From: Candidatus Omnitrophota bacterium
GTDB taxonomy: Bacteria; Omnitrophota; Gorgyraeia; Zapsychrales; JANLHA01
Direction of reading: 5' to 3'
DNA length: 64,000 bases
Assembly (NCBI GenBank): GCA_020632535.1
Contig: JACKFJ010000004.1
Span: forward strand, 41,514 to 105,513
Made by a program: the position numbers and the translations under genes. Below, piece after piece: positions 20,145 to 63,746 of this stretch (position 1 is its first letter; the number at the start of each line of letters is the position of its first letter). The notes beneath the pieces were generated by a model. The model saw only the letters and a list, made by a program, of their open reading frames with translations. It was not told where the DNA came from and did no database searches.

Positions 20145-21116
20145 TTATTTCAACCCTAATTGCTTAAATAAACGCGAAGAAGAACGAACATATTGGTCAC
20201 TACTGATCTCCTTTAGCCACTTTTCCTTAAAAAAGGGATCGATTTCAACACGACTATCACCCCAACCTTGTCCCTTCCACATCGGGAATTTATCCCAATT
20301 GCAGTTAATATAACTCACCGCGCGCACATCATTCTCGCGAATAAACGCAAACAAACTCTTATACCAACGATCCCAACGTCTTTGTGAATCAACAGGCACA
20401 TCCAAATTGGGAGAAGCCTCAGCAATAATCAAGGGCTTATGATGCTTACGAGCTAAATCAGCAAACACAGCTGCGTCTTTTCGATTGTACAATGTAAAAA
20501 AACTAACCCCAAACCAGTCAACATAATCGTCACCCGGATACCAATTTAAAAACGGCTTTAAAGAATTTATAACACCGTAAGAATGCCAAATATATGCGAC
20601 ATTATTTACTCCTTGAGCGCGCCAATGATCAACAAGATATCGATACGCTTTTACATAAACTTTCGATTCATATCCGTTTTGTGGTAAATCAAATTCATAA
20701 CCAATACGTAAAAAAACCGGACGGCGCGTTGATTTTAACCATTCCCCAAATCGCTCAATATTATCATCATATTTCCCATCAATAACATCCTGTAAAGTTC
20801 CAACCATGTATAATCCAATTTGCAAAACCGAATCCGGATATTCCTTTAAAAGATAATTCGCGTCCTGAAAACCTGCACCGTGATCCGCCGGTTCTTCAAC
20901 TCCACTTAAAATTTCGATTGAAGTGTAAAACATCACCCCTGCCGGCACAACATTAAGTTCACGGCTATACGCATTTATCGATTCACGGTCTTGACCAACA
21001 AAAAGGAGAATTTTCTTATCTGGAGGAAGAAACCTTGCAGAACCTTGCCCCGCAAAAACTGGGCAACTGATCAAAATAAAAACAATGATTAACAGAAGCT
21101 TTTTTATCACTTTCAA
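20145..21116 (-). CDS. Secreted glycoside hydrolase, GH26-like (clan GH-A)
   Basis: Signal peptide ([22 protein letters not shown]). Blocks resemble GH26: RPVFLRIGYEFD (acid/base Glu region), WYPGDDYVDWFGVSFF and KPLIIAEASP (nucleophile Glu region). TTG start overlaps the fabZ stop (TTGA). Confidence 0.55.
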   Translation of the reverse strand: MKVIKKLLLIIVFILISCPVFAGQGSARFLPPDKKILLFVGQDRESINAYSRELNVVPAGVMFYTSIEILSGVEEPADHGAGFQDANYLLKEYPDSVLQIGLYMVGTLQDVIDGKYDDNIERFGEWLKSTRRPVFLRIGYEFDLPQNGYESKVYVKAYRYLVDHWRAQGVNNVAYIWHSYGVINSLKPFLNWYPGDDYVDWFGVSFFTLYNRKDAAVFADLARKHHKPLIIAEASPNLDVPVDSQRRWDRWYKSLFAFIRENDVRAVSYINCNWDKFPMWKGQGWGDSRVEIDPFFKEKWLKEISSDQYVRSSSRLFKQLGLK

Positions 21117-22348: not shown

Positions 22349-23587
22349 TCAACTTTCATATTTTCTTAGCACCATACATGAATTTGCCCCACTAGGTGCA
22401 AAACCAACAACAAGAACATTTTTCAAATCCGCTTTGACACTTGTGTTGGCAATGATATTCAAATCACAATCCGGATCGGGCACTTGATAATTTATCGTCG
22501 GCGGAATAAAACCGTCATACAAAGCACCCAACGCCGCCGCCGCTGAAAATCCAGCTGTTACACTATAACATTCCCCGACCATAGATTTAATAGAACTGAC
22601 AGGAATTTTCTTTGCGTGACTGCCGAATATATCTTTGATCGCGGCACATTCAATTTTATCAGCGGCCTGTGTGGAGTTGGCATTAGCACAAATATAATCA
22701 ATATCGGTCGACATCAATCCAGCCTTATCCAAGGCTTCTCTTATCGCGATTTTCAAACCAGTTGCGCGCGGATTATATTTATGCAAACGGAATGGATCAA
22801 AGCTGTAGCCAAATGACGCGACTTCACCCAAAATTCTGGCCCCTCGGGCTTTAGCATGCTCATAATCTTCCATACAAAATAAAACCGCGCCTTCACCGAA
22901 TGTAATCCCGTTGCGTCTTTTGTCAAAAGGGCAATTGATAAACTCAGTTCCTTCTTTTGAGCCAGAAAGAAACTGCAATGTATGAAAGCCAAAATACGTA
23001 TGCCAACACAGCTCTTCGACGCCACCAGCATAAATTACTTTAGCGCGATCCCATTGCAAGAAGTTATAAGCATAACTCATAGCGTCGAGCGTGGCTGTAA
23101 AACCGGTCGAGATTGTCGTATTAAAGCCTTTAATTTTATGCCAAATGGAAACCTGACTTGCAGGAGAATTGATAACAGTATTCGGAAATAACGACGGATT
23201 AACATACCGAGGACCTTCACGAAGTGTCACTTCATCGAACTCTGCAATACTTTTCAGACTGCCCAATGTTGTCCCAACAGAAACACCCACATCATCAGTA
23301 TTTTCTTCCGAAATTGTAAAACCACTATCGTCGATGGCCAATTTTGCAGACGAAACCATGAGTTTAGTACTACGATCAAGGGTGCGCAAACCCTTTTTGC
23401 CCATATAGATTGTCGCGTCAAAATCACTGATTTCACCGGCAATCTTAACATTAAATTTGGTTGTATCAAAAAGCGTGATTGGTCGATAACCAATCCTGCC
23501 TTCTTTGAGGCCTTGCCAGTAATCTTCACGACTTTTTCCGACGCCGTTAAGAATCCCTAAACCCGTAATGACAACTCGTTTTGACAT
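22349..23587 (-). CDS. Beta-ketoacyl-ACP synthase II (FabF) homologue lacking the Cys-His-His catalytic triad (CLF-like / pseudo-KS)
   Basis: Collinear with E. coli FabF as I remember it. The active-site positions read TISTGFTAT (Cys163 -> Phe163), YICANANST (His303 -> Asn302) and SMVGECYS (His340 -> Glu339). The C-terminal GFGG is replaced by APSG. Confidence 0.8.
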   Translation of the reverse strand: MSKRVVITGLGILNGVGKSREDYWQGLKEGRIGYRPITLFDTTKFNVKIAGEISDFDATIYMGKKGLRTLDRSTKLMVSSAKLAIDDSGFTISEENTDDVGVSVGTTLGSLKSIAEFDEVTLREGPRYVNPSLFPNTVINSPASQVSIWHKIKGFNTTISTGFTATLDAMSYAYNFLQWDRAKVIYAGGVEELCWHTYFGFHTLQFLSGSKEGTEFINCPFDKRRNGITFGEGAVLFCMEDYEHAKARGARILGEVASFGYSFDPFRLHKYNPRATGLKIAIREALDKAGLMSTDIDYICANANSTQAADKIECAAIKDIFGSHAKKIPVSSIKSMVGECYSVTAGFSAAAALGALYDGFIPPTINYQVPDPDCDLNIIANTSVKADLKNVLVVGFAPSGANSCMVLRKYES

Positions 23588-23603
23588 AGCGACGTATTAT
23601 AAC

Positions 23604-24182
23604 CTATTTTCGCAAAAGATAGCGCGCCAAAATATCTGTTTCAACATTTAAACAATCGGCTTTCTTCTTTTGGCCAAAATTTGTCAATCTCAATGTCATG
23701 GGAATCAAATGAACGATAAAAGTTTCTTTTTTAACTTGTCCGACAGTAAGACTAATACCATCGAGAGTTACTGAACCTTTAGCAACAAGATAGCGCATAA
23801 ATTTTTTATCCAGTGTGACTTCAAAAGCCACATAATTGGGAAGCTTCACAATATTCTTAATCGTACCGATACCGTCAATGTGTCCCGTAACAAAATGTCC
23901 TCCAAAACGTCCATCGGCTTTCATGGCGCGCTCTAAATTTACCGCATCACCGGGCTTAAGATCACGCAGTGTCGTCGCAAACAACGTTTCACGCATCAAG
24001 TCAAAACTCAATACTTTACCTTTGCGGCCCGTAACGGTTAAACAAACACCGTTGATCGAAATACTATCACCATTCTTTGTTCCTACTAAAACCCTGTTCA
24101 CTCGGATATTAAGAACACATAAATTCTTTTGCTTATCAAGCTTTTCAACAATCCCCATCTCTTCAATTATGCCAGTAAACAT
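23604..24182 (-). CDS. ribE: Riboflavin synthase (alpha chain) RibE
   Basis: Canonical N-terminus MFTGIIEEMG from ATG 24182; the track ORF extends to 24227. Confidence 0.9.
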   Translation of the reverse strand: MFTGIIEEMGIVEKLDKQKNLCVLNIRVNRVLVGTKNGDSISINGVCLTVTGRKGKVLSFDLMRETLFATTLRDLKPGDAVNLERAMKADGRFGGHFVTGHIDGIGTIKNIVKLPNYVAFEVTLDKKFMRYLVAKGSVTLDGISLTVGQVKKETFIVHLIPMTLRLTNFGQKKKADCLNVETDILARYLLRK

Positions 24183-24192
24183 AGCTTTAACC

Positions 24193-25272
24193 TTACTTAA
24201 TATAACCTTCAAATAAAGAATCCTCACCTATTTGCCGCACATGCATATCACGCAGTCCAACGGCTTGCACCAAACGCAATACATTTAATCCGTCAATAGA
24301 ATTGTGAGCCCCTTGATCACCCAAGATCTTTGGAGCAATAAAAATTAACATTTTATCAACTAACTTTTCTTTTAAAGCTGATCCAATCACTTGCCCACCG
24401 CCTTCAATCAAAATCCGCGCAATTTCCTGTCGAGCTAACTTCTTTAGCAACCATTTTATATCAACTTGCTCTTTTTTAACCGGACAAATCACAACATTCA
24501 CACCACGCTTTTCTAAAACACTAACTTTTTTCTTGTTGGCTTTTTTTGTCGTCGCGATAAAACAGTCTTGCGCCTTCGTATTCATAAAAATCTTGGCATT
24601 CAGCGGAATACGCAGTGAAGAATCCAGAACAATCTTTTTCAAAGGTTTCAAAGGTGCGTTTAAACTAGGATTGTCCTTTAATATCGTATTAATTCCAACG
24701 AGAATGGCATCAAATTCATTTCGCAAATTATGCGCATACGTTCGCGCGGCAGGTGACGTTATCCATTTGGATTCACCTGCCCGTGTCGCAATCTTACCAT
24801 CAAGCGTTTGCGCGGTTTTCGCTACAATAAAAGGTGTTTTCTTAACAATATATTTCACAAAGGATTCATTCATCTTCATAAGTTCATCCCGCAAAACCCC
24901 CACCTTAACTTTAACGCCAGCCTTGCGCAATTTCGCAATTGATTTGCCATTTGTTAAAGGATTCGGATCCGTCATCCCGACGATAATATTTTTAATTCCG
25001 CTTTTCAAAATTGCATCCACGCACGGTGGTGTACGTCCATAATGAAAACATGGTTCTAACGTAACATAAAGTTTTGCGCCACGAAGATTGCTTGTTGCTT
25101 TTTTTAACGCAACAACTTCTGCATGCGAACCACCACGATGATGATGAAAACCATGCGCGACAACTTTATTTTTCTTCACAATCACCGCGCCAACCATAGG
25201 ATTGGGTGAAGTCGTAGTCTTACCTTTGAGGGCAAGCTGTTTTGCCATTTTCATGAAATCAATATCGTTCAT
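24193..25272 (-). CDS. ribD: Bifunctional diaminohydroxyphosphoribosylaminopyrimidine deaminase / 5-amino-6-(5-phosphoribosylamino)uracil reductase RibD
   Basis: Deaminase Zn motifs HAEVVAL and LEPCFHYGRTPPC, plus a C-terminal reductase domain. Confidence 0.9.
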   Translation of the reverse strand: MNDIDFMKMAKQLALKGKTTTSPNPMVGAVIVKKNKVVAHGFHHHRGGSHAEVVALKKATSNLRGAKLYVTLEPCFHYGRTPPCVDAILKSGIKNIIVGMTDPNPLTNGKSIAKLRKAGVKVKVGVLRDELMKMNESFVKYIVKKTPFIVAKTAQTLDGKIATRAGESKWITSPAARTYAHNLRNEFDAILVGINTILKDNPSLNAPLKPLKKIVLDSSLRIPLNAKIFMNTKAQDCFIATTKKANKKKVSVLEKRGVNVVICPVKKEQVDIKWLLKKLARQEIARILIEGGGQVIGSALKEKLVDKMLIFIAPKILGDQGAHNSIDGLNVLRLVQAVGLRDMHVRQIGEDSLFEGYIK

Positions 25273-25286
25273 ATCATTAGGGATTT

Positions 25287-26126
25287 TTAAGAAAAATGTT
25301 CTGGTCTTTTTGAACGCGCACGTAATTGTTCAACAAATTCACAGGGAATACGTCTTTTGCCTATCCATGTATTCGTTTTATGCTTGCCGTGCGCATCAGA
25401 ACCACCAGTCATTGTCAGCTTATACTTACGCGCAAGACCTTCATAATATAAAACTACGGCGTCGGGACAATTCGGATAATATACCTCCAGACCTCCCAAA
25501 CCGACATCCACAAAACTCGCAATCAATTCATCTCGATTTGTCACCATGGGATGAGCCAAAACAGCAACTCCACCAGCTTGACGGATTAATGCAATTGCTT
25601 CTTTCGGTGATTGCTGATGCTTTGGCACGTAGGCCGTACACTTGTCGCCAATAAACTTATCAAACGCTTGCCACGAATTCGTAGCCCAACCTTTTTTAAC
25701 CAAAGCTGCAGCTAAATGCGGACGACCTAAAGCGTCCGACTGGGACTCGGCCTTAATATCTTCAAAAGAAAGATTATCAATGCCTTGCTTTTTTAAATTC
25801 TCAATCATCTGAGCAATGCGAGAAAAACGAGTTGTGCGGAATTCTTCCAATTTCTGTTTCAACAAAGCATTTTCCAAATCCAGAAAATATCCTAAAATAT
25901 GAATGTCTTTGCCATTGACTTCCGCCGAGAGTTCAATTCCCGAAATTACTTCAATCCCCCACTCAACCGCGGCAGCCTGTGCCATTTTGACCGCGCCCAT
26001 CGTGTCATGATCAGTAATCGAAATACATGATAATCCAGCATGACAAGCCTCTTCCACAACCGCTTCCGGCGCTTCACTGCCGTCGGAATAAATGGTGTGC
26101 ATATGCAAGTCTGCGAAGTGGTTCAC
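25287..26126 (-). CDS. PHP-domain metal-dependent phosphoesterase
   Basis: N-terminal DLHMHTIYSDGS, later ITDHD and GGSDAHG motifs typical of PHP (polymerase/histidinol phosphatase) domains. GTG start overlaps the nusB stop (GTGA). Confidence 0.75.
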   Translation of the reverse strand: MNHFADLHMHTIYSDGSEAPEAVVEEACHAGLSCISITDHDTMGAVKMAQAAAVEWGIEVISGIELSAEVNGKDIHILGYFLDLENALLKQKLEEFRTTRFSRIAQMIENLKKQGIDNLSFEDIKAESQSDALGRPHLAAALVKKGWATNSWQAFDKFIGDKCTAYVPKHQQSPKEAIALIRQAGGVAVLAHPMVTNRDELIASFVDVGLGGLEVYYPNCPDAVVLYYEGLARKYKLTMTGGSDAHGKHKTNTWIGKRRIPCEFVEQLRARSKRPEHFS

Positions 26127-26575
26127 AATTTCTGTCTTAATGAAATAACTTCTGTTTTGTGGATTTTGTCTAAAATACCATTAACGAATTTGCTGGATTC
26201 CAAGTCGCCATATTTCTTGGCTAATTCAACCGCTTCGTTAATACTAACTTTGGGTGGGATATCTGGGCAATAAAAAAATTCAAAACAACTCATACGCAAA
26301 ATGTTGCGGTCAATAATCGCCATACGCTTTAACTGCCAATTTGTCGCATAAGAAGAAATCTTGGCGTCAATTGACTCAATTTCAAGCGACACACCATAAA
26401 CTAAACGAGTAGCAAATTCTTTGATTTCAGAATCGATCTCAAAAGGATCATCCTCATCACTGACCAAGTCCGAACTCCAAAAATCTTCGATGGTCGCGTC
26501 AACAGAGCGTGCCGTCGCGTCCTTTTGATATAGGATTTTTAAAGCACATTCTCTCGCAACACTACGTTTTCTCAT
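26123..26575 (-). CDS. nusB: Transcription antitermination factor NusB
   Basis: MRKRSVARECALKILYQ N-terminus from ATG 26575; the track ORF begins at TTG 26623. The ribH-nusB pairing is common. Confidence 0.85.
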   Translation of the reverse strand: MRKRSVARECALKILYQKDATARSVDATIEDFWSSDLVSDEDDPFEIDSEIKEFATRLVYGVSLEIESIDAKISSYATNWQLKRMAIIDRNILRMSCFEFFYCPDIPPKVSINEAVELAKKYGDLESSKFVNGILDKIHKTEVISLRQKL

Positions 26576-26626
26576 AGAGGGTATTGGCTTAAGATTCAAA
26601 CATCGACGCCAACCCAAAAACAAAGA

Positions 26627-27091
26627 TCAAGTTGACTTCAATATATTTGTCATCTCTACCGCGGTTCGCGCGGCATCACAACCTTTATTATCGCCTTTTT
26701 CTTCCGAACGTCGATTTGCCTGATCAATTGTATCTGTCGTCAGGACTCCAAAAATAACCGGTTTTGCCGTATCTAAGGAAACACGCATTATCCCAGAAGC
26801 AGCTTCCTTTGCAACAAGTTCAAAATGAAATGTGTCTCCTCGAATAACCGCACCTAAACAAACAACTGCGGCAATATCCTTTCTCCGCGCCAAGGCCAAC
26901 GCCGCCATCGGAATTTCAAACGCGCCCGGCACCCACACAATGGTCAAATCTTCTGAAACAACTCCAAGCTTTTTAAATTCACGTAGACACCCCGCCAATA
27001 ATCGCAAAGTGATAAATTCATTAAATCGTGAAACAACGACACCAAATTTTTTATTTTGACGCGGTGCTTTTTTACTTTTCTTTACTGCCAT
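26627..27091 (-). CDS. ribH: 6,7-dimethyl-8-ribityllumazine synthase RibH
   Basis: 154 aa with FGVVVSRFNEFI and VPGAFEIP motifs. Confidence 0.9.
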   Translation of the reverse strand: MAVKKSKKAPRQNKKFGVVVSRFNEFITLRLLAGCLREFKKLGVVSEDLTIVWVPGAFEIPMAALALARRKDIAAVVCLGAVIRGDTFHFELVAKEAASGIMRVSLDTAKPVIFGVLTTDTIDQANRRSEEKGDNKGCDAARTAVEMTNILKST

Positions 27092-27155
27092 AATGTCGTC
27101 CCACCACGATAGAATATACCCGATAAAAATCGCTAAAGCAAGTCAGAGAACCAAG

Positions 27156-28361
27156 TTACAAAATATGACCCATTTTCTCTTTTTTGGTTTTAAGATAATT
27201 CTTATTGTGCGCATTATGCGGAATTTGTAGTGGCATTCTCTCCACAACGGTTAAACCATAACCTTCAAGACCGACAATTTTTCGTGGATTATTTGTCAAA
27301 AGACGAATCTGCTTGATACCTAAATCAACAAGAATCTGCGCGCCAATCCCATAGTGTCGCAAATCCGCAGAAAAACCTAAAGCCTCATTCGCCTCAACAG
27401 TATCCATACCTTTATCCTGCAAATTATAGGCTTTCAATTTATTAACAAGTCCAATGCCGCGACCTTCCTGACGCATATACAAAACCACGCCGGATCCAGC
27501 CTCCGCGACCGCCTTTAAAGAGGCATTCAGCTGCGCGTTGCAATCACATCGTTGTGAACGAAAAACATCGCCGGTTAAACATTCCGATTGCACACGCACC
27601 AACTCAGGTACCGTGCCGTCGATTTTACCCTTAACTAACGCAATATGAATCGTCTCTTCCACCTTGGATTGATAACCATACATTGTAAATTCGCCAAAAT
27701 CCGTTGGTAAACGTGTTTCAACAACACGCTCAACCAATTTTTCGGATTTACGACGATGTTCAATAAGACTGGCAATGGAACAAATTTTTAAACTAAACTT
27801 TTTCGCAAACTCAATAATATCTTCCGTACGAGCCATAGTCCCGTCTTCATTCATAATTTCACAAATAACACCTGCGGGATAAAGTCCGGAAAGTTTCATC
27901 AAATCGACAGAGGCTTCAGTATGTCCCGCCCGAACCAAAACACCACCTTTTTTTGCGCGCAACGGAAACAAATGCCCCGGAGCTTCTAAATCACTGGGCT
28001 TAGCTTGCGGATCCAGAAGAACTTTGACAGTATAAGCACGATCAAAAGCAGAAATCCCTGTCGTAATTCCGTGAGCCGCATCAACCGAAATTGCCCAGCC
28101 AGTATTACTCAATTTGTGAACACTTTGCGCTGAAAAAAGATCTTTCATTGGGTGAAGTCCTAATTCGTCTAAACGACTTTCTTCCATTGGAACACATATC
28201 AAACCACGCGCATTCTTCGCCATAAAATTGATGAGTTCCGGCGTAATAAACTGAGCGGCGACAAGAAGATCACCCTCATTCTCACGACCTTCATCATCCA
28301 TGACAACGACCATTTTCCCTGTCTGTAAGTCCTTTAATACTTCCGCGATCGAATTAAACAT
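27156..28361 (-). CDS. ribBA: Bifunctional 3,4-dihydroxy-2-butanone-4-phosphate synthase / GTP cyclohydrolase II RibBA
   Basis: DHBP synthase block GRENEGDL and GCH II Zn motif RVQSECLTGDVFRSQRCDC. AAGGTG Shine-Dalgarno upstream. Confidence 0.9.
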   Translation of the reverse strand: MFNSIAEVLKDLQTGKMVVVMDDEGRENEGDLLVAAQFITPELINFMAKNARGLICVPMEESRLDELGLHPMKDLFSAQSVHKLSNTGWAISVDAAHGITTGISAFDRAYTVKVLLDPQAKPSDLEAPGHLFPLRAKKGGVLVRAGHTEASVDLMKLSGLYPAGVICEIMNEDGTMARTEDIIEFAKKFSLKICSIASLIEHRRKSEKLVERVVETRLPTDFGEFTMYGYQSKVEETIHIALVKGKIDGTVPELVRVQSECLTGDVFRSQRCDCNAQLNASLKAVAEAGSGVVLYMRQEGRGIGLVNKLKAYNLQDKGMDTVEANEALGFSADLRHYGIGAQILVDLGIKQIRLLTNNPRKIVGLEGYGLTVVERMPLQIPHNAHNKNYLKTKKEKMGHIL

Positions 28362-28738: not shown

Positions 28739-29002
28739 TTACTTGGAGTTTTTCTTAAAAGCGGAGCTTTTATTACTTTTATCTGACATATAATGCTTGA
28801 CCCAACCTGCGGAGAACTTTGTAATCCAATCATCTGCTGCTTTATCAAAACCGATACTGTGACCAGCTTTTTCACTTTCAATCCATAAGTGTCTTTTAAT
28901 CTCTTCAACGACACGCGGGTCTTTAAGCAATGCCTCTTTACTCACCTTTGCCATACCAACTGCCCCACGATGATTAAATAACGCTGACAGGATTTTCTTC
29001 AT
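28739..29002 (-). CDS. Small hypothetical protein (87 aa) with KRHLWIESEKAGH motif
   Basis: Only sizeable ORF in this interval outside the riboswitch. Contains EEIKRHLWIESEKAGHSIGFDKAADDWI and a basic tail. No firm family assignment. The start is uncertain (ATG 29002 or internal MAKVSKE). Confidence 0.45.
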   Translation of the reverse strand: MKKILSALFNHRGAVGMAKVSKEALLKDPRVVEEIKRHLWIESEKAGHSIGFDKAADDWITKFSAGWVKHYMSDKSNKSSAFKKNSK

Positions 29003-29159: not shown

Positions 29160-29200
29160 AAAAATAAAAGCGCCCATTTCCGGATAACGGAAACAGGCGC
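29160..29200 (-). terminator. Intrinsic terminator on the minus strand, part of a terminator/antiterminator leader
   Basis: Minus strand GCGCCTGTTTCCG-ttat-CGGAAATGGGCGC (13 bp including two G-U pairs) followed by TTTTATTTTT. Confidence 0.6.
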
Positions 29201-29314
29201 ATCACATTTTCCGTTATTGGCAACTGGCTGCCCCTAACACCGGGGCCCTATAGTTTTGTGCCCTACCCTTGCGAGTAGTTTACCCTTTTCAATAATGTCT
29301 TTTAAGACTGTCAA

Positions 29315-59501: not shown

Positions 59502-62500
59502 TTACCGCATTGACAACTCTGGTACCTTTTCCTGCTTTTCAGAACTCAACAAAAACGGAAAGCTTTGTATCGTCGCCGGCTGCATGTTGATAATAACCGG
59601 GAAAAGACCATCAATATGAATATTCTCAATATTCTGCTGCGGCAAAGGAAGAGGCACACCCTTACCGTTACGCTTGATTTGCAAATTAAGCAATGACGGA
59701 TCAAAGTCGATACCACCGACGGGTGCTGCATCCACTGTGACCGCGGCAGAACTTGTGGCTGGTGGGATTACTTTTTGAGTGACAAGATTTATAACTGCCG
59801 CATCGTCGTAAATCTTTCCACCAACACGCACAACAAGCGCTGCATATGCAGGGTTATTTCTTCGCTTTTCTTCAACTCTGGTGACCACCGTGTTCTCGGT
59901 AGTACCATCATCATCGCTTGCGAAAATAACTCGAGGATCCGTCAGATCTTTAGCCTCAATCATTTCATCAACCAACTGCTCTCCACTGATCGGAGAACCA
60001 TCAAAATGATTATCAAGCACTAAAATCTCAAATGGCTGACCCTGCTCTTTAGCTTTTGCAATTTCCGCGCGAGCTTCTTCTGCAGTCGCAACTTGAGTGA
60101 CAGCATATCCCAAACGCTCTAAAATTCTCTTTTCAAGAAAAGCCGTTTTCGGAGAATCTTCAGCGAGAAGAACACGTACCGCCGAGCTGGCGGCATTAGA
60201 AACAATCTCCCACACATTGCTGTCTTCAGCAGAAACACTCAGACCTACAGTTTCAAAGACCTGTGTAATGTCCTCCTGAGTTAAACCTAAAGCAATCGTA
60301 TTAGTAATTTCAGTCGAAACTTTAAAACTTGTTTCATTGCGCGAAATACGCTCTATTAATTCATCTCCATAGTTTCTGCGCTTAATTCGGCCTAAATATG
60401 GTTCAGCCTTTGCAAGCGATAAAGATGGGATAATCGAATTCTTACTATTTACTGTTTCTTCTGCTAAGGCAAAAAGAACGCCTTGTGTCGCCCAAAGAAA
60501 GCGACCTTTTTCTCTTATTCCTGTCGCTGCAGCGTCACCAAACCCCGGTGTCACCCCAATAACTTCAAATGTTCCAGGAATCATGCCTTGAACCTCTTTA
60601 CTGTTAGTTTCACCAGCACGATCTAATGCTACTAGTTTAATGTTAAGCGTATTGGGATATTTGAAGGTTTCACTTTCACCTTTTATTGTAATTTCATTTG
60701 CCTTTGCATTTTCAAATCTGGAAATTGTATCTAAAATAGGCACCGCATTAAAGAATCTTTCTAAAACCTTTTTCTCTGCAATCGAGTCAACAAGTTCCGG
60801 ACGCAAAGCTGTCTTACTTAATGCCGTTTTAAAATCCTGCAAAGTGACAAATGCTTCCGGAGATAAACTTGCAATCGCGGCAGCAATATCTCTTATTTGT
60901 GTAGGAGTATAAACAGTATCCCGCGCTAATAAAAGCTCAAGATCAACAGCTGATTCTTGCCCTTTAAGTTTTGATAAAAGCATCGGCAAATCAATTTTTC
61001 CAAAAATTTTCGCATAATTTGCCTTGATAATATCACTGTCTTCAAGAGAAACACCTGCAAGAACTAAAGCATCCGCAAGACTAGTCGGACTATCAAAAGT
61101 TTCTTCAGCATTTTTACCTGTGGACAGTTTTACTAATGCATCCGTAACCTTATTAATGCTATTTTCATCTGGAGTTATAGTTCCGGGTTTAGTGAATAGT
61201 TCTGAAAGACGTAAAGCAGATCTAATTTCATCTTTCTGAAAAACAATTTCAGGCAATGCAGCTAACCCTTTTCGCAGCCATGTCGTTCGCAAGAAATGGT
61301 CTAAGCCAAACAAATAATTTAATTGTAAATTCAGCCCCGGATTCATCCGAGCAATTCGGAGCACGTTTTCTTCACCATCAATACTCAAATTATCTTCATT
61401 AATTTGGCTAAGCTGAATAAATGGTGCTAAAGACTTAAGCACACTTTGCTGTAAAATGTGAACACGTACTTCCATCGGTGAAAGATCCGGTTTACGAGTA
61501 TCCGATCCTTGCAATACAATAAGCGCGAAATCAGTCTCATTGTTAGCAATATCATTTAACATTTGACCAATATGCGCAAGTTGAATTGGATTCCCGCTTG
61601 TAGCAAAAAAAGTTACTTTAACCTTTTCTTTTTCTTTCCCCTCAGGAACTTGACCGGTATGGTATCTATCCCAAGTCACCCAATCAGCCTTTTGTGGATT
61701 TATTTTACCGGCAAGTCGCAAGACATCAATTCTCTTTCCAACATCATTTAAAATCCAATTAATAAAAACTTCCGTCGATTGCTGATCCGCTATATAATCA
61801 TTTTGATTCACGTAGAGCTCTTTAACAGAATCATCCGTCGCCTGCTCAACAATATCCCGAATTAATCTCCCAAAGACTTTACGGACTAAAGGATCTTGAA
61901 ATTTAGAAAATGTAATGGGCATAACATTATTCCTAATTTCAGCTAATGTATATTCTCTCGTAGAATCGAGTGCCGCGCTTGATGATACTTTATTAGCCGC
62001 AACTAATCTGTTCCAATACTCATTGTACAAAGCAAGTTCTTGACCCGAAAAAGGATTTTGTAATCTATCCGCGACAATCGCGATAAATAAATCAGCTCCC
62101 TCTGGAGTAAGATTTACTAAATCAATTCCGAGCTCCAGATTTGTATCGATTCGACGCGCATCAATTCCGCCTGAGTTAGATTGTCCCTTAAAATCTAATC
62201 CTTTTGTTCCAAAAACAATCACTCGATCATCATCACCATTCCAATTGGTTTGATGCCCTTGATAACTGAGTTCTAATAACAACCGTTCCGTGGCAAGAAT
62301 AGCCTCAGGAGAAATCTTTAAATCTGCTGTCGCTGATGCTGGTTGGGCAATGCCCTTAGCTTCAAATTCAGCATTAAATTTGTCCAAATATTTTTCAACA
62401 AAACGAGCGACTTGCCAACTCGCTTCTGACTCTGTCAACCCAGCAGGATTGGCGATTTGCGCTCCTTGTGCCCTTGCGGCACGCAAACCTTCTAAGACGG

Positions 62501-63746
62501 ATTGGAGAGCTTGCTGTTCCTCAAACTGAACAAAAGCCGTGGTATATTGTCCGACGCCGTTTCCACCAGTATTTGTCGCCATGTCAGTACGAATATATTG
62601 TATTAACCGTTCTGCACGAGGATCATTAGGCGCTAATCTTTGAATCGCGCTACTTGCCGCTTTTCCAAAAAGCACCCCACCAGAAAAATATTTGCGCGGC
62701 AAAGCTTCCTTACTCGCAAGATCGTAATCTTCTTTGATCATGTTATAGACACCCTTACGAAAGGCGGCCAAATACTGCTCATAAATCTTTTGTTTCAAAT
62801 CTTTTTCAGAAATGTCTACACCATTGATCTTACTTTTGTCGACGTAAACTTTACCCAAAAGAGAATTCTTCAAATTCTGCTTATACCAAGCCGCCAAAAT
62901 AACAGAATGATAGATTTGACGGACAGAAGCAAAATTTTTGCCTTCATTGATTTCCTTTTCGAGTTCAGGAAGGATGATCTGGCGGACGACTTCCGACGAG
63001 ACACTGCTCACATCTTCGACTTTATCTTTAGAGATTTTATTCATCCCCAATTTTTCATTCTTAAGATTTTCTTTAATTGACGTATAATCCTCATCAAGCA
63101 TGATCTTCAAATGACTATCCCCGATAAAGACATACCCCTGCTCTTCAAGAATCTCAGCGCGATCCGGCATGATCCACACCTTATTAAAGGTATTAATCGG
63201 GATTGATGTTGTGCCAAACTTTTCATAAGCCTTTTTGTAAACCGTGTCCCAGAACTTTTTGCCGATTTCTTCTTGCGGATTAGTAAGTGAGGCAGAAAGT
63301 TGTTTCAAAAGATAATCTTGCTCAAGCATATGCTTACCCATGTCCGTTGAACCGAGCATATCCGGAATAATGCGATCGCCTTCATACGGAGAAAGGTTAA
63401 CCCACGAATCATCGTCTGGAATCGTCATGGCAGCGAGAAAATACTTCAAAAGTTTTTGCGTTTCCTCTTTTAAGGCATCTCCGGTAAGCTTATCCTGTCC
63501 GCGATCAACGATAAAATCAAATTGCAGAGGATTTTCTGGATGAAGCGTCATACCTTTGAGAACTGGCGGCTGAAATGTCGGGCTTAAAAGAACCATTTCC
63601 CCGGGTTTGGGGAGATTGGTGATATATTGTGCGTCCGCGCGAGAAACGGGAGCGATAACAAGACTTAAGGAAAAGGCAAATGCAACAAAACTGCAAAGGG
63701 ATTTACGCAATATTGCTGTCTTTTTTTGATAGAAAGTCTCGTACAT
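59502..63746 (-). CDS. 1414-aa predicted exported multidomain protein (unassigned N-domain, NadD-like nucleotidyltransferase-like region, receiver-like domain, C-terminal GGID module)
   Basis: Single uninterrupted ORF with AAGGAG Shine-Dalgarno 8 nt upstream. N-terminal signal/anchor KKTAILRKSLCSFVAFAFSLSLVIAPVSRADA. Internal VTFFATSGNPIQLAH and GDAAATGIREKG. Receiver-like VRVLLAEDS...ILVLDNHFDG...IFASD...GGK. See findings. Confidence 0.7.
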   Translation of the reverse strand: MYETFYQKKTAILRKSLCSFVAFAFSLSLVIAPVSRADAQYITNLPKPGEMVLLSPTFQPPVLKGMTLHPENPLQFDFIVDRGQDKLTGDALKEETQKLLKYFLAAMTIPDDDSWVNLSPYEGDRIIPDMLGSTDMGKHMLEQDYLLKQLSASLTNPQEEIGKKFWDTVYKKAYEKFGTTSIPINTFNKVWIMPDRAEILEEQGYVFIGDSHLKIMLDEDYTSIKENLKNEKLGMNKISKDKVEDVSSVSSEVVRQIILPELEKEINEGKNFASVRQIYHSVILAAWYKQNLKNSLLGKVYVDKSKINGVDISEKDLKQKIYEQYLAAFRKGVYNMIKEDYDLASKEALPRKYFSGGVLFGKAASSAIQRLAPNDPRAERLIQYIRTDMATNTGGNGVGQYTTAFVQFEEQQALQSVLEGLRAARAQGAQIANPAGLTESEASWQVARFVEKYLDKFNAEFEAKGIAQPASATADLKISPEAILATERLLLELSYQGHQTNWNGDDDRVIVFGTKGLDFKGQSNSGGIDARRIDTNLELGIDLVNLTPEGADLFIAIVADRLQNPFSGQELALYNEYWNRLVAANKVSSSAALDSTREYTLAEIRNNVMPITFSKFQDPLVRKVFGRLIRDIVEQATDDSVKELYVNQNDYIADQQSTEVFINWILNDVGKRIDVLRLAGKINPQKADWVTWDRYHTGQVPEGKEKEKVKVTFFATSGNPIQLAHIGQMLNDIANNETDFALIVLQGSDTRKPDLSPMEVRVHILQQSVLKSLAPFIQLSQINEDNLSIDGEENVLRIARMNPGLNLQLNYLFGLDHFLRTTWLRKGLAALPEIVFQKDEIRSALRLSELFTKPGTITPDENSINKVTDALVKLSTGKNAEETFDSPTSLADALVLAGVSLEDSDIIKANYAKIFGKIDLPMLLSKLKGQESAVDLELLLARDTVYTPTQIRDIAAAIASLSPEAFVTLQDFKTALSKTALRPELVDSIAEKKVLERFFNAVPILDTISRFENAKANEITIKGESETFKYPNTLNIKLVALDRAGETNSKEVQGMIPGTFEVIGVTPGFGDAAATGIREKGRFLWATQGVLFALAEETVNSKNSIIPSLSLAKAEPYLGRIKRRNYGDELIERISRNETSFKVSTEITNTIALGLTQEDITQVFETVGLSVSAEDSNVWEIVSNAASSAVRVLLAEDSPKTAFLEKRILERLGYAVTQVATAEEARAEIAKAKEQGQPFEILVLDNHFDGSPISGEQLVDEMIEAKDLTDPRVIFASDDDGTTENTVVTRVEEKRRNNPAYAALVVRVGGKIYDDAAVINLVTQKVIPPATSSAAVTVDAAPVGGIDFDPSLLNLQIKRNGKGVPLPLPQQNIENIHIDGLFPVIINMQPATIQSFPFLLSSEKQEKVPELSMR

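Follow-up and report, generated by a model that had tools for sequence, protein, structure and literature searches.

A triad-less FabF-like protein encoded behind a riboflavin operon in Omnitrophota is the likely non-catalytic partner of an anammox-type ketosynthase

The stretch of DNA analysed here (the window, 64,000 nt) belongs to an Omnitrophota bacterium and encodes on its minus strand a FabF-like ketosynthase (KS) that has lost its catalytic triad, hereafter referred to as KSmut (Table 1). The gene is part of a packed string running from 28361 down to 20145 in the order ribBA, ribH, nusB, a PHP-domain gene, ribD, ribE, KSmut, fabG, fabZ and a GH26-like gene, with a tRNA next. Spacers in its central part are short, with 16 nt between ribE and KSmut, 6 nt between KSmut and fabG and 42 nt between fabG and fabZ. 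As predicted originally from the letters alone, the product is a FabF-like protein, matching both PF00109 and PF02801 over its full length in a Pfam scan; its score on the fabF equivalog TIGR03150 (361.1 bits) lies below the cutoff of 493.75. Neither a second KS nor an acyl carrier protein (ACP) was found in the 64 kb by tblastn with KSmut and with the E. coli ACP, nor was an ACP recovered by phmmer with an amxACP-like query, in agreement with the earlier reading that the window lacks both.

The residues at the catalytic positions were assigned from a HMMER alignment of KSmut to the FabF of B. subtilis (4ls5). The replacement of the triad by Phe, Asn and Glu, as originally proposed, holds in this register, but the two His positions are numbered 302 and 339 rather than 303 and 340; the alternative register, placing a Cys and two His at the catalytic positions, was not seen. 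The alignment also bears out the two further marks that had been read, namely the retained Lys (Lys334) and the replacement of the C-terminal GFGG gate motif of FabF, which corresponds to A397-P398-S399-G400 in KSmut. The alignments show no or almost no variation at Lys334, Glu339, Asp310 and Glu313, a conservation that points to a probable role of Lys334 and Glu339, as a pair, in stabilising the disabled pocket.

The best match of KSmut in the PDB is 9s5h_C (E 2.9e-116, 392 bits, 46% identity over 409 residues), with which it aligns without gaps from residue 3 to residue 411 of both chains, a match that settles its fold, versus 267 bits for the best canonical FabF and 240-267 bits for canonical FabFs among the best 60 PDB matches. 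The triad positions of 9s5h_C are occupied by Val, Asn and Glu; entry 9s5h also contains an active KS of 413 residues, and entry 9s5i an ACP of 80 residues. From the Val/Asn/Glu signature, the spacing of the F/T/V residues and the presence of the ACP chain we infer that 9s5h_B, 9s5h_C and 9s5i_E are, respectively, the amxFabF2, amxFabFmut and amxACP of a recent preprint on anammox bacteria, the text of which prints no PDB codes (Granatino et al., bioRxiv 10.64898/2026.05.19.726425). According to that study, amxFabF2 and amxFabFmut are each inactive alone and co-purify as a heterodimer, which decarboxylates malonyl-amxACP and makes acetoacetyl-ACP. In this pair amxFabFmut is the inactive partner, resembling a chain length factor (CLF), and activity is seen only on co-expression with amxFabF2; its residues Phe135 and Val139 line the acyl tunnel of amxFabF2 and influence chain-length preference (bioRxiv 10.64898/2026.05.19.726425). 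Residues F134, T137 and V138 of KSmut are identical to the tunnel-lining residues of amxFabFmut (Phe135, Thr138 and Val139 in B. fulgida).

Triad-less FabF paralogues had already been listed in Kuenenia in 2009 (Rattray et al., PMC2649909, Table 2). Kuste2805 of K. stuttgartiensis, annotated as "FabB", carries Phe163, Asn298, Lys328 and Glu333, which is the four-residue signature of KSmut, and shares with it an Asn two residues past the first His site as well; Kuste3606 differs from the signature at the Cys site only. Kuste2805 was compared through the published residue table, and KSmut may be the orthologue of either Kuste2805 or Kuste3606. Taken together, sequence, signature, tunnel residues and phylogeny (see below) make KSmut a member of the amxFabFmut/Kuste2805 family, and neither a canonical FabF nor a CLF of a type II polyketide synthase (PKS). 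The parallel drawn originally with Cys-less KS-beta/CLF partners therefore pointed in the right direction, since the amxFabFmut family constitutes the inactive half of a KS/CLF-like heterodimer.

The two enzymes encoded after KSmut keep their catalytic residues, as had been noted before: NNAG, Ser and YxxxK in FabG, and the His of GHFPG and the Glu of VEAMAQ in FabZ, all read from the translations. FabG scores 288.9 bits on TIGR01830, below the cutoff of 297.75, and 248.6 on NF009466, above the cutoff of 222. The best PDB matches of the FabZ are the amxFabZ entries 7qv0, 8ayb and 8ayd, at 132.7 bits versus 126.9 for E. coli FabZ, so that the two are barely separated. Of the marks used to recognise the amxFabZ type (Ile69, Ser/Thr96 and Val/Ile115), the window protein has Thr96 and, on the same ACP face, Leu115, which is amxFabZ-like where canonical enzymes have Lys or Arg; tunnel position 69 is Cys (Gly in canonical FabZ, Ile in amxFabZ). 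The amxFabZ states at positions 96 and 115 suggest that the trio KSmut-FabG-FabZ may work with an amxACP-like carrier.

In order to follow the gene in related organisms, one genome per species was scanned with a 9-sequence alignment, a 26-sequence alignment being too diverse for this use. The scan gave 306 loci with a KSmut relative, of which the best 80 were kept, and the open reading frames (ORFs) of the loci were searched with the window proteins, amxFabF2, ACP and FabH. Group A consists of the window and ~45 loci of ~59-91% identity, all from Omnitrophota, many of which bear the wrong label Planctomycetales, and has the arrangement RibD-RibE-KSmut-FabG-FabZ ... acylphosphatase-LigA, with no ACP or KS near KSmut in any of them. 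Conservation of the trio in relatives, which had been put forward as a check, is thereby seen in ~45 genomes. The closest homologue of KSmut among the database matches listed is 90% identical and comes from a metagenome-assembled genome (MAG); identity is 65-90% among the 120 closest proteins listed, all those with a named source belonging to Omnitrophota. Given the 90% identical homologue and the recurrence of the arrangement in ~45 genomes, the KSmut pattern is far beyond chance.

Group B (51-59% identity) contains other Omnitrophota, including a MAG of "Candidatus Velamenicoccus archaeovorus", Nitrospirota/Thermodesulfovibrionia and one "Deltaproteobacteria" MAG. The gene order is KSmut-FabG-ACP-FabZ-KS in its Omnitrophota and FabG-KSmut-FabZ-KS-ACP in Nitrospirota, and in total the dead KS is clustered with FabG, ACP, FabZ and an active KS in ~35 loci, several of which end at contig edges. 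The active KS of group B has the CHKH residues intact and a C-terminal AFGG, as does amxFabF2, and the ACPs match amxACP best (7qv0_D, 7auf and 9s5i_E, 54-58 bits) versus 45 bits for the E. coli ACP. A "phytoene-desaturase-like" flavoprotein of family PF01593, to which Kuste3607 of the anammox cluster belongs too, is encoded 3' of the KS. No gene for a B12 radical S-adenosylmethionine (SAM) enzyme was found within ~10 kb in any annotated locus or near the module, and in the window neither a phytoene-dehydrogenase-like flavoprotein nor a B12-dependent radical-SAM enzyme is encoded.

Searches with a group-B Omnitrophota KS, and then with one match of it, recovered a split fab locus in five genomes, of the order YceD-rpmF-plsX-fabH-fabD-(HTH17)-KS-histidine kinase-...-PF01593 flavoprotein, from which KSmut, FabG, ACP and FabZ are absent. 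The split loci and the contiguous group-B loci have the same flanks, namely HTH17 upstream and the histidine kinase and PF01593 flavoprotein downstream, indicating an excision of the KSmut-FabG-(ACP)-FabZ block that once stood between HTH17 and the KS. The five-gene cluster of dead KS, FabG, ACP, FabZ and active KS is ancestral; it has been split in the lineage of the window, where the trio now stands behind the riboflavin operon and the amxFabF2-type KS has remained at rpmF-plsX-fabH-fabD. Both halves were met in the single-amplified genome (SAG) AM-311-J20 (JBHPFN01), which has RibD-RibE-KSmut-FabG-FabZ on contig JBHPFN010000010 (locus L045) and YceD-rpmF-plsX-fabH-fabD-HTH17-KS on contig JBHPFN010000006 (locus L088), the KS being 54% identical to amxFabF2. 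At least one group-A genome therefore holds both halves at separate loci, with no binning step involved. The search for a partner KS that had been advised gave nothing in the 64 kb of the window, but succeeded in this relative, at the plsX-fabH-fabD locus of the same genome. The description of KSmut as an unusual orphan turns out to be an effect of viewing a single window, since its relatives have a partner KS and an ACP in the cluster, or a KS fused to the dead domain.

Several further features accompany these loci. A small HTH_17 gene (MerR/excisionase-like) heads the module in nearly all group-B and split loci, and behind the KS there is nearly always a histidine kinase of the HisKA_7TM type; both are candidate dedicated regulators, and neither occurs near the window trio. 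The breakpoints of the split loci (L087-L092, from fabD/HTH17 to the KS and just past it) carry PF05635 (23S rRNA intervening-sequence protein), nucleotidyltransferase/HEPN toxin-antitoxin pairs, AbiEii and a Y1 transposase, suggesting a rearrangement hot spot. A class-I SAM methyltransferase (PF08242/PF13847) recurs by the module, upstream of KSmut in Nitrospirota and fused to or after the histidine kinase in some Omnitrophota. The record titles of many such Omnitrophota MAGs read "uncultured Planctomycetales/Planctomycetia bacterium", and partner-type KSs or fusions are credited to MAGs of Methanosarcinaceae, "Candidatus Taylorbacteria" and "Candidatus Helarchaeota", assignments that may reflect binning contamination or mislabelling.

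The breadth of the family was assessed by an exhaustive search of 50%-identity representatives, and the following counts refer to its best 150 matches. Stand-alone triad-less proteins account for 77 of these and ordinary active KSs for 27, the other 46 being two-domain proteins of ~800 residues. All but two of the latter (44/46) have an N-terminal half with Cys-His-Lys-His intact and a triad-less C-terminal half. For the N-terminal half of one fusion (P0123) the best match is 9s5h_B (amxFabF2), by the small margin of 361.9 versus 352.5 bits for canonical FabFs. Another fusion (a member of cluster P0130, from Moorella sp.) bears the NCBI label "beta-ketoacyl synthase chain length factor". In a distance-based (neighbour-joining) tree of 122 sequences, all triad-less domains fall in one clade with a bootstrap of 85/100, comprising the window protein, other Omnitrophota, Nitrospirota, amxFabFmut, the C-terminal halves of the fusions and the stand-alone representatives. 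The idea of placing KSmut on a phylogeny relative to CLFs was thereby realised in part: it groups with amxFabFmut, but no PKS CLF is among the 122 sequences. With this sampling, the loss of the triad probably took place separately from PKS CLFs, within FabF-like sequences.

Among the dead domains, 123 in all, 19 different residues occur at the Cys site (Gly, Ala, Phe and Glu among them), and the first His site is variable too. The Lys, by comparison, is kept in 91 of the 123, the second His has become Glu in 82, and FxxTV is kept in 67. Such extreme variation at the Cys site, with Lys334 and Glu339 conserved, fits a structural subunit and not an enzyme with a new chemistry. Relative to the closest genome (L006), KSmut has a dN of 0.060, FabZ of 0.082, FabG of 0.095 and RibE of 0.195; omega (~0.035) is an approximate value since dS is saturated. 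Of these four genes KSmut is under the tightest constraint, and the purifying selection on it is strong.

On this evidence KSmut is likely to be the non-catalytic, CLF-like half of a heterodimer with an amxFabF2-type KS, a reading grounded in the gapless match to 9s5h_C, the single clade of triad-less domains, the clusters in ~35 loci, the 44 fusions and the presence of both halves in the SAG. KSmut would pair with the amxFabF2-type KS (intact Cys-His-His, AFGG) of the rpmF-plsX-fabH-fabD locus; its helix-loop-helix, with F134, T137 and V138, would complete and size the acyl tunnel of the partner, and KSmut would stabilise the single active site of the heterodimer. The latter would decarboxylate malonyl-ACP and condense it, after which the co-operonic FabG would reduce the product and the amxFabZ-like FabZ would dehydrate it, on an amxACP-like carrier. 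For the window organism, the physical pairing, the identity of the ACP and the product are what we infer. A role of the heterodimer as substitute initiator for a missing FabH was also considered and is weakened, FabH adjoining the partner KS in every split locus and lying near the cluster in Nitrospirota.

Several observations weigh against this heterodimer. No partner KS or ACP was seen in the window's own genome, of which 64 kb were searched, and in HK-STAS-OMNI-1, the nearest relative at 91% identity, the KS was not recovered. The match list of KSmut shares no contig with the two KS match lists, though with KS matches listed down to ~60% identity this is no evidence of absence. The same-genome evidence comes from the SAG, whose KSmut is 61% identical to that of the window. 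Often, Omnitrophota fab loci also encode a third KS paralogue (432-437 residues, ~31% identical to amxFabF2), placed after the histidine kinase and before the PF01593 flavoprotein. Its triad is intact in three of the four cases in Table 1, and this second active KS of 433-437 residues could be the true partner of the dead KS. The amxFabFmut of S. brodae was seen as a homodimer in crystals, with its helix-loop-helix disordered, and the anammox biochemistry stems from a preprint and extends to decarboxylation and acetoacetyl-ACP formation only, not to full elongation (bioRxiv 10.64898/2026.05.19.726425). A crude charge count over the helix-loop-helix and the helix that it contacts, tried as a proxy for the preprint's rule of electrostatic asymmetry at the heterodimer interface, was uninformative, since by this count the reference amxFabFmut is itself not positive.

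Some of these points would suit a stand-alone homodimeric pseudoenzyme, acting as scaffold, as binder or sequesterer of acyl-ACP or as regulator together with FabG and FabZ, with no KS partner at all. There is indeed no KS within 64 kb, in most of the phylum KSmut-FabG-FabZ have stayed together without the KS, and S. brodae amxFabFmut does form homodimers in crystals. We nevertheless regard this as improbable, as the helix-loop-helix is disordered in that homodimer and the protein alone is inactive, fusion or adjacency to an active KS is the rule in the wider family, the residues lining the partner's tunnel are conserved and an amxFabF2-type KS exists in a group-A genome; for the regulatory pseudoenzyme proposed originally, no support was found. 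A different chemistry on an unusual substrate, with a new active site made of Lys334, Glu339, Asp310 and Glu313 (an idea of 2009 for Kuste3606), would agree with the near invariance of these four residues and with the very strong purifying selection. It appears very unlikely, however, considering that the nucleophile position accepts 19 residues, among them Gly, Ala, Phe and Glu, that neither decarboxylation nor condensation nor crosslinking is seen with the anammox protein by itself, and that the tunnel in its crystal structure reaches no catalytic triad.

An equally slim chance is given to a CLF of a type II polyketide or aryl-polyene secondary-metabolite pathway. The general KS/CLF logic holds for KSmut, FabZ has faint ApeI/ApeP-like Pfam matches, and FabG scores 249 bits on the model of the flexirubin reductase FlxB, below its cutoff of 340. 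Against such an origin, no PKS CLF chain is among the best 60 PDB matches listed, and where decarboxylating CLFs have a Gln in place of the Cys, KSmut has Phe. Tailoring genes, such as those for a cyclase, an aromatase or an ammonia-lyase, are absent, and the surroundings are core-genome ones, with rib, ligA and the dcw cluster or with plsX-fabH-fabD as neighbours. A decaying pseudogene or an annotation artefact, to which the loss of all three catalytic residues might have pointed, has a negligible probability: the frame is intact over 412 codons, the best 120 database matches are 65-90% identical, and the dN of KSmut, the lowest of the four neighbouring genes compared, rules out decay.

Beyond the window, the pair of dead and active KS with ACP, FabZ and flavoprotein is widespread in the Omnitrophota genomes recovered and common in Nitrospirota/Thermodesulfovibrionia, often beside plsX-fabH-fabD. 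The preprint presents the cluster as unique to ladderane producers and the pair as the first chain length factor in a fatty-acid pathway (bioRxiv 10.64898/2026.05.19.726425), and in 2009 similar clusters were noted only in a few Deltaproteobacteria (PMC2649909). The distribution of the pair across phyla, with natural fusions elsewhere, goes beyond this literature, and the core of the anammox "ladderane cluster" is in large part shared with bacteria other than anammox. This narrows the hunt for truly ladderane-specific genes and offers many non-anammox sequences for finding the product of the heterodimer. Such proteins, now labelled "beta-ketoacyl-ACP synthase II" or "family protein", are better read as non-catalytic partners than as condensing enzymes. 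The undescribed lipid pathway raised in the original prediction stands in so far as the product of the system is still undescribed, but the family itself has already been characterised; on fatty-acid synthesis in Omnitrophota nothing was found in the literature.

A wider and more tentative proposal, which we consider possible but rather less probable than its negation, is that the amxFabF2/amxFabFmut-type heterodimer is the primary, or a dedicated alternative, fatty acid synthase (FAS) in Omnitrophota and Thermodesulfovibrionia, and not an accessory pathway. In this role it would act together with FabG, a PF01593 flavoprotein, a dehydratase of the amxFabZ-like kind and a carrier resembling amxACP, and behind plsX-fabH-fabD it takes up the place of fabG-acpP-fabF. 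If true, primary lipid synthesis in whole phyla would depend on a condensing enzyme of obligate KS/CLF-like make-up; in anammox bacteria an alternative FAS II, acquired by inheritance, would form the core of "ladderane cluster I", and the B12 radical-SAM enzyme alone would remain as ladderane-specific candidate. In ten group-B Omnitrophota loci (L049, L050, L052-L056, L062, L086 and L093, "Candidatus Velamenicoccus archaeovorus" among them), genes for Lpd, an LplA/B catalytic domain, a lipoyl-domain protein and HTH17 lie directly upstream (~3-6 kb) of KSmut-FabG-ACP-FabZ-KS, which hints at a link of the module with octanoyl-ACP or lipoylation. Because of these genes, and of the preference of the anammox enzymes for substrates of C8 or shorter, the module may, as a variant, be a dedicated short-chain synthase, for example of octanoyl-ACP for lipoylation.

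As to the surroundings of the trio, the TATAAT hexamer noticed earlier before the KSmut start codon is present as described and, in line with that description, no properly spaced -35 was found for it; it is probably incidental, a dedicated promoter being unlikely. A 4-nt overlap of ribE with KSmut, found in many relatives, implies co-transcription with the rib operon. By ORF calls, the spacer between the two genes is ~160-970 nt in the closest relatives (L006-L010 and L069, 88-91% identity), and compared with the 16 nt of the window and the 4-nt overlap of many distant group-A loci this points to a junction that has been unstable in evolution. No FMN (flavin mononucleotide) riboswitch that would place the trio under flavin control was detected at gathering threshold upstream of ribBA. 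The riboswitch that does lie further upstream, ahead of an ORF of 87 codons without Pfam match and of the rib operon, is of the c-di-GMP-I class (RF01051, 61 bits), with a terminator-like hairpin after it. At the other end of the transcription unit, the GH26-like gene occurs, among 90+ loci, only in L001 and L002, both contigs of the window organism, and is a recent addition to the operon, outside the conserved module. Pfam scans of most other large ORFs of the window gave core-genome genes only (dcw cluster, ribF, truB, ligA, pst, ppk); a 1414-residue ORF has no Pfam match save a weak, sub-threshold one to a receiver domain (22.6 bits).

Table 1. Positions of the features discussed, in the window or, where a locus is named, in that locus.
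Feature	Position	Strand	Remarks
KSmut, triad-less FabF-like protein, 412 aa	22349..23587	-	Member of the amxFabFmut/Kuste2805 family; proposed non-catalytic, CLF-like subunit
FabG-type 3-oxoacyl-ACP reductase, 250 aa	21590..22342	-	Begins 6 nt past the KSmut stop codon
FabZ dehydratase, 144 aa	21113..21547	-	TIGR01750 168 bits, above the cutoff of 155
GH26-like gene	20145..21116	-	Last of the transcription unit; 4-nt overlap with the fabZ stop codon
Upstream operon genes ribBA, ribH, nusB, PHP-domain gene, ribD, ribE	23604..28361	-	RibD-RibE-KSmut-FabG-FabZ order recurs in most Omnitrophota loci recovered (group A)
F134-P-N-T137-V138 motif, helix-loop-helix	23174..23188	-	Matches Phe135, Thr138 and Val139 of amxFabFmut
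Phe163 codon, catalytic Cys position	23099..23101	-	Alignment to 4ls5
Asn302 codon, first catalytic His position	22682..22684	-	Alignment to 4ls5; also Asn in Kuste3606 and Kuste2805 (PMC2649909, Table 2)
Lys334 codon, retained Lys (Lys335 in E. coli FabF)	22586..22588	-	Invariant in alignments A1 and A2
Glu339 codon, second catalytic His position	22571..22573	-	Alignment to 4ls5
TATAAT hexamer	23596..23601	-	8 nt before the KSmut ATG, inside the 16-nt ribE-KSmut spacer
87-aa ORF	28739..29002		No Pfam match
Terminator-like hairpin	29170..29200	-	After the riboswitch
c-di-GMP-I riboswitch	29216..29294	-	RF01051
1414-aa ORF	59502..63746	-	
Third KS paralogue	L088 12924..14234		Triad intact
Third KS paralogue	L089 15499..16800		Triad intact
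Third KS paralogue	L079 6168..7481		Triad intact
Third KS paralogue	L083 16174..17472		Cys replaced by Lys
HTH_17 gene	L086 6907..7146		
HTH_17 gene	L088 9339..9557		
Class-I SAM methyltransferase	L074 8713..9993		
Class-I SAM methyltransferase	L080 7982..9064		
Class-I SAM methyltransferase	L091 11980..13152		
Class-I SAM methyltransferase	L089 12669..15494		

Among known systems, canonical FabF (TIGR03150) shares with KSmut the collinear two-domain fold and ~35-37% identity, but KSmut is without the Cys-His-His triad and the GFGG gate and falls below the family cutoff. The CLFs of type II PKSs (actinorhodin ActI-ORF2 / 1tqy_B; ishigamide Iga12 / 6kxd) and ApeC of aryl-polyene synthases provide the general analogy of an inactive KS paralogue that pairs with an active KS and shapes its tunnel; they differ in that KSmut lacks a Gln at the Cys site, is matched far better by canonical FabFs than by the CLF chains, and stands among FAS genes in the core genome, not in a biosynthetic gene cluster. 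The natural KS-KSmut fusions have a C-terminal half that belongs to the triad-less clade and has the K-E pair and FxxTV, and an N-terminal half that is amxFabF2-like. In these proteins, however, the halves are covalently joined, whereas in the lineage of the window they are separate genes at separate loci.

The closest parallel with a described partner is amxFabFmut (Kuste3606 / Broful02170) of anammox Cluster I, with which KSmut has in common the His to Asn and His to Glu replacements, the retained Lys, the F/T/V residues and the clade. The likeness extends to the associated genes: the FabZ is amxFabZ-like at positions 96 and 115, and relatives of the window have an amxACP-like ACP, a KS with 54-56% identity to amxFabF2 and, after that KS, a "phytoene-desaturase-like" flavoprotein of PF01593. 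The window protein differs in having Phe, and not Val or Thr, at the Cys position. Its host is a member of the Omnitrophota, from which, to our knowledge, ladderanes have not been reported; FabG is inside the unit, the partner KS and ACP are not adjacent in this lineage, and the trio has become joined to a riboflavin operon.

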